A stretch of 57,335 nucleotides of DNA from Candidatus Buchananbacteria bacterium RIFCSPHIGHO2_02_FULL_56_16 (GTDB lineage: Bacteria > Patescibacteriota > Patescibacteriia > Buchananbacterales > UBA6539), in assembly GCA_001817495.1 (NCBI GenBank), contig MHIL01000023.1, forward strand, positions 1 to 57,335, given 5' to 3'. The notes below the pieces were generated by a model. That model did not search any database. It had not been told where the DNA came from and was given only the letters and a program-made list of their open reading frames with translations. Both the position numbers and the translations under genes were made by a program. Shown here piece by piece: positions 3,229 to 3,320 of the stretch (position 1 is its first letter; every line of letters starts with the position of its first letter).

Positions 3229-3320
3229 GTAGTAAGTAGTCAGTAGTTAGTAGTCTGTAGTCAGTAGACGCAAAGGAGGGCTTGAGTCTCCTACAGACTA
3301 CTGACTACCGACTGCAGACT
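3229..3320. repeat. Intergenic imperfect hairpin, word family 1 (GTAGTCAGTAG / CTACTGACTAC)
   Basis: The 11-mer GTAGTCAGTAG is at 3236 and 3257, with its complement at 3298. A 12-bp stem pairs agtagtctgtag (3249-3260) with ctacagactact (3291-3302). The right half is homologous to 53797-53842. Confidence 0.7.

Follow-up and report, generated by a model that had tools for sequence, protein, structure and literature searches.

The window analyzed here is a 57,335-nt stretch, contig C23 of a 1.06-Mb, 39-contig, 88%-complete assembly from a groundwater bacterium (genome G000; C numbers given below without a genome handle are contigs of the same assembly). It carries an 11-mer, GTAGTCAGTAG, with exact forward (+) copies at 3236, 3257, 13198, and 53786 and complement (−) copies at 3298, 13238, 46176, 46183, and 53812. 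The first-pass annotation had proposed a dispersed intergenic hairpin family on the strength of these nine copies, all of which we reproduced at their coordinates and outside the ORF-based gene calls. At up to one mismatch, the window holds 27 matches, compared with 0.26 ± 0.50 expected from 100 dinucleotide shuffles, confirming strong over-representation against a compositional null.

The matches are spaced in steps of 7 bases, and in Tandem Repeats Finder the window yields period-7 arrays at 3229-3267, 3291-3320, 13198-13223, 46172-46235, and 53812-53842. The 11-mer is not the core of an element; it spans parts of two units, 1.6 in all, in a tandem array of the degenerate heptamer GTAGTNN, whose variants in the window end in TCA, TAA, TCT, TCG, TTA, or TGA. 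Forward and inverted copies do face each other at three loci (3229-3320, 13198-13261, and 53767-53843), as first described, while the predicted stems exceed the 11-12 bp originally proposed, being imperfect duplexes of 20-30 bp (−24 to −46 kcal/mol, z −5 to −6). The features at the three hairpins and at one further array are as follows.

3229..3267, + strand: hairpin 1, arm 1; 5.6 units of GTAGTNN (ending TAA, TCA, TTA, TCT, TCA)
3268..3290: hairpin 1, loop; ACGCAAAGGAGGGCTTGAGTCTC, resembling only the loop of the 53.8-kb copy
3291..3320, + strand: hairpin 1, arm 2; inverted array of 4.3 units of CTACNNA
3338..3366, − strand: promoter-like TTTACA-17-TACAAT, upstream of hairpin 1
13198..13261: hairpin 2; GTAGTCA GTAGTCT GTAGTCG GTAG, loop, CTACTGA CTACTTA CTATAGA
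46169..46244, + strand: one-armed array, not a hairpin; CTGACTA (three), CAGACTA (two), and the 10-mer derivative ACTACTTACT (4.2)
53767..53843: hairpin 3; between genes 53840-54832 (−) and 52490-53752 (−)

Hairpin 1 has the promoter-like sequence upstream of it and therefore lies in the 5′ leader of trpS (2249-3217, − strand). On the mRNA, which is read from the − strand, its arm 1 is the start-proximal CUACUNN arm and ends 11 nt before the trpS ATG at 3217. The predicted fold of the complete hairpin (3226-3322) has an energy of −41 to −46 kcal/mol, and a terminator scan found no terminator at 3150-3450. Hairpin 2 begins 47 nt past the stop of gene 12053-13150 and precedes both a terminator (13293-13311) and a promoter (13327-13355); it sits between gene stop and terminator and is therefore in the 3′ UTR. 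That terminator, a canonical stem with a T-run, is separate from hairpin 2 and is the only one near the 13.2-kb copy.

The other two loci fill their gaps. The one-armed array starts 11 nt after a stop at 46158 and ends 10 nt before an ATG at 46255; its 10-mer, in 4.2 copies at 46203-46244, is the heptamer with an extra CTA. Hairpin 3 occupies an intercistronic gap, with the TAG stop (53840-53842) of the upstream gene 53840-54832 inside the array and its end 14 nt before the downstream ATG. No T-run follows any GTAGTNN copy, and a search of the window with Rfam returned tRNAs only, with no match to the hairpins.

Period-7 dialects in the spacers of the genome

A census of the whole assembly gave 29 GTAGTNN loci, about 22 of them true arrays. 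These include 10 inverted pairs, nine with loops of 12-40 nt, and the remainder are one-armed. Chirality is fixed: in 10/10 pairs the order is GTAG arm, loop, CTAC arm. In the nine short-loop hairpins the stem measures 18-30 bp (folding energies of −18 to −46 kcal/mol, z-scores of −2.7 to −8.2), and the 12-40-nt loops contain no gene remnants. Similarity between the loops of the 3.3-kb and 53.8-kb copies, noted in the first-pass annotation, is real (GGGCT..TTGAGTCTC) and does not extend further, as the loops of the other seven of the nine hairpins are unrelated. Every copy lies between protein-coding genes, some of them inside operons, and none is in an rRNA helix. In mRNA sense, the arm beside an ATG is of the CUACUGA type and ends 1-22 nt before it; one-armed arrays lean weakly toward the CTACTGA-sense orientation (roughly 6-9 vs 3). 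The family is thus dispersed, strongly over-represented, intergenic, and positionally biased, as had been claimed.

GTAGTNN hairpins are one dialect among the 7-base mirror-image repeats that occupy gene-to-gene gaps in this genome, a genome-wide phenomenon which the first-pass annotation missed along with the gene cassettes described below. The genome has 325 period-7 arrays, 255 of them intergenic, compared with 5.0 expected from dinucleotide shuffles; an excess is seen in intergenic DNA for periods 8, 9, and 14 as well. The most frequent units are listed here.

AAAAATC: 39 arrays
AAAAGCT: 19 arrays
ACTACTG (the GTAGTNN family): 18 arrays
AATTAGG: 17 arrays
AAAATTC: 14 arrays
AAATCGC: 13 arrays

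Where neighboring arrays share a unit, 55 pairs are inverted and 8 direct; loops measure 12-107 nt, bar three large exceptions, and each dialect keeps one chirality (e.g. AAAAATC, 13/13). The upstream arm begins within 0-20 nt of a stop codon, and the downstream arm stops 1-22 nt short of a start codon. At gene ends, where a 3′ or 5′ bias had been suggested as a check, arms abut stop codons as often as start codons. Arrays are enriched in co-directional spacers (215 vs 181 expected, chi-square P = 3 × 10−5), and hairpins are depleted between divergent genes (3 vs 10 expected, P = 0.006), which fits placement in transcribed DNA. The class takes a large share of all gene-to-gene gaps, including the leaders of the essential genes trpS and ssb.

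The AAAAATC hairpins (C28:8358-8445, C28:9898-9992, C19:6418-6518, C22:8924-9020, C12:5318, and C26:30317) have loops with conserved GC-rich modules. One 42-nt loop is identical in two copies, and others have in common two GC stems with T-runs. Given these conserved modules, the AAAAATC dialect behaves as a mosaic dispersed element.

The trpS slot was also compared between genomes. Among 19 relatives, the −10 box of the trpS promoter is placed 7-9 nt ahead of the ATG, a spacing that suggests leaderless mRNAs, and is itself preceded by a terminator of the GC-stem/T-run type; no hairpin is found in the relatives with this spacing. Heptamer hairpins of other dialects occupy the slot in several genera (AAATTAC in G017, AAATTTC in G012, AAAAGTC in G004). 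The TrpRS orthologue of G012 (G012:C3:17959-18924, L013) contains one in-frame TAG. Shine-Dalgarno (SD)-like motifs precede only 9-17% of genes. Across 959 predicted starts the context is strongly biased, with T at −1 in 53% and C at −2 in 41% (CTATG).

Permuting the unit order in one arm of 43 hairpins did not weaken the fold (median rank 0.5, Wilcoxon P = 0.86). The two arms thus do not mirror each other in the order of their unit variants, and they are complementary at the unit level only. The arms drift independently, and nothing indicates a covariation signal for selection on precise RNA structure. Change between strains is slow. Our genome has a strain-level match in GCA_001817585.1; assemblies of other samples agree with it exactly over the trpS hairpin in 7 cases and over the 46.2-kb array in 10, and the 53.8-kb hairpin shows point changes only. 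A single divergent strain has four point changes and an 18-nt deletion in the start-proximal arm of the trpS hairpin. The arm of that strain contains a CTA-CTA junction like that of the 10-mer at 46203-46244. Hypermutable contingency loci, or phase-variable simple-sequence repeats, are ruled out by this near-invariance over 7-10 assemblies per locus.

Shared arms of hairpins and PF05635 cassettes

One GTAGTNN pair differs from the others in what it contains. On C18, inverted GTAGTNN arrays 380 bp apart enclose a gene between rpsF and ssb (C18:1220-1537), which encodes a 124-aa four-helix bundle of family PF05635 (23S_rRNA_IVP, E = 7.5 × 10−36) and ends inside the array. The genome has six PF05635 genes, five of them inside inverted arrays, each with its own dialect: GTAGTCA, AATTAGG, AAAAGCT, AAATCGC, and a CTAAATC-like unit. 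Apart from the last, these rank 3, 4, 2, and 6 in the genome and are its commonest non-A-rich dialects; if cassettes occupied random hairpins, such a match would arise by chance with P of about 0.07. AAAAATC, the most abundant dialect, has no resident cassette in the 88%-complete assembly. The window itself holds the AATTAGG cassette.

39720..40254, + strand: PF05635 cassette of a sister dialect; gene 39820-40137 inside inverted AGGAATT / CCTAACT (12 units) arrays

The right arm of this cassette (40171-40254) has twelve perfect CCTAACT units, compared with 2.4 units in its left arm; the array in a homologous cassette of G004 (L042) consists of nine perfect 8-mers, CCTCCTAA. Gene-less AATTAGG hairpins and the AATTAGG cassette have in common a second-tier inner stem, CTTGTAGCTTCTTAG / CTAAGA.CTACAA. 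The motif AATCAACATAGCGC occurs at 19 sites with up to one mismatch (e.g. window 39763, C18:1587, C22:22496, and C6:31647). Every PF05635 gene here and in relatives has it upstream, as does ssb in many relatives, and it often forms either a CATAGCGC...GCGCTATG hairpin ending on the start codon or a GCGC stem with a T-run.

A seventh locus is a direct intermediate between cassette and empty hairpin. At C26:62272-62565, an ATGAAAC/GTTTCA hairpin has a 255-nt loop containing a PF05635 remnant (tblastn 10−13, profile E = 6.5 × 10−10) with one frameshift and its N-terminal half lost. For the GTAGTNN dialect, neither a target-site duplication nor an enzyme nor a site seen both filled and empty was found. 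The rpsF-ssb cassette is present in 10/10 strain assemblies among the matches listed, and the rpsF-ssb sites of relatives are too distant to inform on filled versus empty.

Sharing of the family itself, raised in the first-pass annotation, is patchy: GTAGTNN arrays occur sporadically in 7/40 relatives belonging to other genera and families, with the same chirality and stop-to-start placement, and several genera have other dialects in the trpS slot. In G027, a member of another family, a GTAGTGA-armed PF05635 cassette (C36) and a gene-less GTAGTGA hairpin are one gene apart. Individual genomes have between 0 and 13 copies of PF05635. Sampling period-7 density from 7.5-40 kb per genome in regions away from PF05635 hits, we found that PF05635 genes per Mb correlate with arrays per 20 kb (Spearman rho = 0.57, P = 4 × 10−4, n = 35, kinship ignored; outliers G013, G026, and G021). 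Genomes without PF05635 have on average 0.7 arrays per 20 kb, compared with 4.9 in those with five or more copies (Mann-Whitney P = 0.003).

From 41 genomes, 94 PF05635 cassettes were collected and their flanks scored by ungapped inverted repeats, since shared 6-mers were too noisy (median of 9 in mismatched controls). The flanking inverted repeats exceeded the 95th percentile of mismatched flank pairs in 75/94. Protein identity predicts arm k-mer overlap between genomes: pairs under 50% identical average 0.02, and pairs over 70% identical average 0.40 (Mantel test, fixed beforehand, 5/500). In a maximum-likelihood tree of the proteins, a single clade gathers the arms with TAG-containing units (23/24 members, 14 genomes, support 0.97). 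Its members differ in their downstream genes, and within it the cassettes with GTAGTNN arms from G000 and G027 are near neighbors. The TAG-arm trait requires 6 parsimony changes, compared with 23.5 in shuffles (0/5,000 shuffles equal); the label, TAG density in the best inverted-repeat arm, was chosen post hoc, after the tree had been seen. A stricter label requiring a TAG spacing of exactly 7 applies to 12 cassettes only and gives P = 0.0135. Arm type follows the protein tree, and the arms therefore belong to the cassette rather than being arbitrary local hairpins.

Interpretation of the gene-less hairpins

Because arms of the same dialect enclose the PF05635 gene between rpsF and ssb, we interpret the GTAGTCAGTAG hairpins as the gene-less form of cassettes resembling the intervening sequences (IVSs) of rRNA, residing in transcribed spacers and probably cut by RNase III. 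We put the probability of this reading at roughly 0.6. The elements are IVS-like and not IVSs proper: they have stems of 18-30 bp and PF05635 members, but no rRNA location. In the model, each element is a palindrome of the plan 5′-(GTAGTNN)n, variable loop, (NNACTAC)n-3′ that fills a transcribed stop-to-start spacer. In DNA, its arms drift separately through point changes and repeat-mediated indels, and a cassette can lose its gene, leaving an empty hairpin. In RNA, each copy would form an imperfect duplex of ~20-30 bp in a 5′ leader, 3′ UTR, or intercistronic spacer. The genome has an RNase III gene (C11:2259-2645) and the stems are of substrate length, and we therefore infer cleavage of the transcribed hairpins. 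Cleavage would separate neighboring cistrons and leave a short, SD-less leader before the downstream ATG, which may be of benefit to the cell. Among the functions that the first-pass annotation offered, RNase sites fit best. The ~20 gene-less copies may descend from cassettes by repeated decay, by recombination between arms, or by protein-assisted spread.

A broader version of the same idea is tentative, and we would not bet on it at even odds: PF05635 proteins and heptamer hairpins might form one genetic system, in which each protein lineage recognizes its own 7-nt dialect, here GTAGTNN within the TAG-unit clade, and maintains, spreads, or exchanges hairpins and cassettes. If true, the ~20 gene-less GTAGTCA hairpins would be non-autonomous partners of the rpsF-ssb cassette, and rRNA intervening sequences would be tied to the long-unexplained heptamer repeats of bacteria.

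The arrays are tandem 7-nt repeats, non-coding, and far above expectation, just as heptanucleotide long simple-sequence repeats (LSSRs, or STRRs) are, and the competing view that they are nothing else, with polymerase slippage favoring 7-nt units (Mrazek 2007), growth wherever non-coding DNA allows, and both the hairpins and the PF05635 neighbors incidental, has evidence on its side. It would account for the many unrelated dialects, for arms that evolve independently with unmirrored unit order, for an 18-nt repeat-mediated deletion confined to one arm of the divergent strain, for perfect runs of 8-12 units (C38:6521; window 40171), and for the heptamer excess known in many bacteria (PMC4692102, PMC4679880). 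We nevertheless consider it unlikely, because it leaves unexplained the 55 inverted versus 8 direct pairs, the chirality of each dialect (10/10, 13/13), the recurrence of one dialect both at ~20 scattered places in this genome and elsewhere in the order, in other families, and the link between arm and protein clade. Arrays are also nearly absent from genomes that lack PF05635 (0.7 vs 4.9 per 20 kb), and they are stable over 7-10 assemblies, unlike hypermutable repeats. Less probable still is a site of translational or post-transcriptional control, in which CUACUGA near start codons would bind a protein or the ribosome, comparable to the TAACTGA repeats of Beggiatoaceae. The start-proximal arm is indeed of the CUACUGA type in mRNA sense, 1-22 nt before the ATG; the ACTGA core is common to both repeats; the one-armed arrays at 46169-46244 and C38:6521 share the orientation; and few genes have SD-like motifs (9-17%). 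In hairpins, however, this orientation follows automatically from the palindrome, the bias among one-armed arrays is weak (roughly 6-9 vs 3), arms lie against stop codons equally often and also occur in convergent spacers, and the sister dialects have no common motif.

The remaining proposals came from the first-pass annotation, and we regard both as very improbable. Membership of a REP/REPIN- or MITE-type family moved in trans by a transposase would suit copies that are dispersed, palindromic, and extragenic, the loop sequence common to the 3.3-kb and 53.8-kb copies, and the presence of three Y1_Tnp (RAYT-like) genes in the genome. Yet the arms are degenerate heptamer arrays with no conserved core or loop and no target-site duplication, Rfam finds nothing, and the Y1_Tnp genes are not flanked by GTAG/CTAC arrays, one of them carrying a different, GC-rich palindrome. 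In terms of named classes, the copies have neither the shared ~20-40-nt palindrome nor the repeat-flanked RAYT of REP/REPIN elements; unlike MITEs, they have inverted arms with no duplicated flank at the listed loci and no transposase parent, the sole gene-bearing form being PF05635; and they lack the boxA-boxB-boxC modules of BOX elements, being just arm-loop-arm with no Rfam match. The gene with the GC-rich palindrome, a Y1-transposase-like gene at C34:11145-11411, is both interrupted and flanked by it (GAGCAGAGGCTCT...CTCGGAGCC), and gene and palindrome together look like a genuine REP/RAYT-type pair. The second proposal, U-tract-less terminators or “bumpers” that stop stray translation in several frames, has on its side stable hairpins starting just past stop codons. 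Multi-frame stops are a real property: because the period is 7, any three GTAGTNN units close all frames, with TAG as the stop on one strand and TGA on the other, and two ORFs, gene 53840-54832 and the C18 PF05635 gene, end within arrays. They are not the general reason for the arrays, as AAATCGC and the 5′ arm AAAAATC are stop-free. As to termination, no T-run follows the hairpins, unlike an intrinsic terminator; the 3.3-kb copy lies between a promoter and trpS, a canonical terminator follows the 13.2-kb copy on its 3′ side, and others lie inside operons such as rpsF-ssb. The gene-less form of an IVS-like cassette remains the reading we prefer.

Comparison with known systems

To our knowledge, heptanucleotide repeats have been recognized since 2007 as the dominant long simple repeats of bacteria with no accepted cause, and we know of no role for the very large PF05635/S23p family outside diversity-generating retroelements. 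If RNase III does cut the hairpins, they influence how operons are processed in a lineage with very little use of Shine-Dalgarno sequences; if the link between dialect and protein is causal, it represents a new type of protein-repeat partnership. A 1-Mb genome has little spare DNA, yet these hairpins fill many of its spacers. A full-text literature search, only part of which targeted the protein family itself, found no paper tying heptamer arrays to PF05635 outside rRNA.

The closest tested analogue is the IVS of Coxiella burnetii, with relatives in Leptospira and Brucella. In Coxiella, a PF05635 ORF lies in a 28-bp stem with tandem GACAGAT heptamers that vary by strain (Warrier et al. 2016, PMC4990558); RNase III excises the IVS by cutting within the stem, and the ORF is decaying (PMC4990558). 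The elements described here likewise place a PF05635/S23p gene within a terminal-inverted-repeat stem with heptamers in the arm. Unlike the Coxiella IVS, a single copy in helix 45 of 23S rRNA, they number in the dozens and lie in mRNA spacers; most lack a gene, and their arms consist of heptamer arrays throughout.

Among repeats in other genomes, the TAACTGA arrays of marine Beggiatoaceae, Cyanobacteria, and Bacteroidetes lie in forward orientation a few nucleotides before SD-less starts (MacGregor 2015, PMC4679880). They resemble ours in the ACTGA core and in overlapping the end of the upstream ORF in some cases, and differ in being nearly all direct (1 inverted of 170 sets), with a single dominant dialect and no hairpins (PMC4679880). 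More generally, heptanucleotide units dominate non-coding long simple repeats (Mrazek 2007, as cited in PMC4679880; Calothrix STRRs), and it is the inverted pairing, fixed chirality, and gene-family linkage seen here that set our arrays apart from the slippage model of LSSRs. REP/REPIN elements with their RAYTs are also dispersed extragenic palindromes, but they are conserved in sequence and flank the RAYT (PMC3116915), and neither applies here.

Similar in architecture is the GGGAATC repeat of Xanthomonas, which is ~90% intergenic, mostly in co-directional and rarely in divergent spacers, and located near ORF ends (PMC4692102). Each genome has 70-75 convergent (inverted) pairs, and array length varies at conserved sites between close relatives (PMC4692102). 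Inverted intergenic heptamer arrays with an equal bias in gene context are thus found in both lineages; the Xanthomonas unit differs in being G-rich, in being read as quadruplex-forming, and in having no gene family linked to it (PMC4692102). Inverted heptamer arrays were already known in Xanthomonas; the family described here is an IVS-like heptamer palindrome whose arms link it to PF05635 cassettes.
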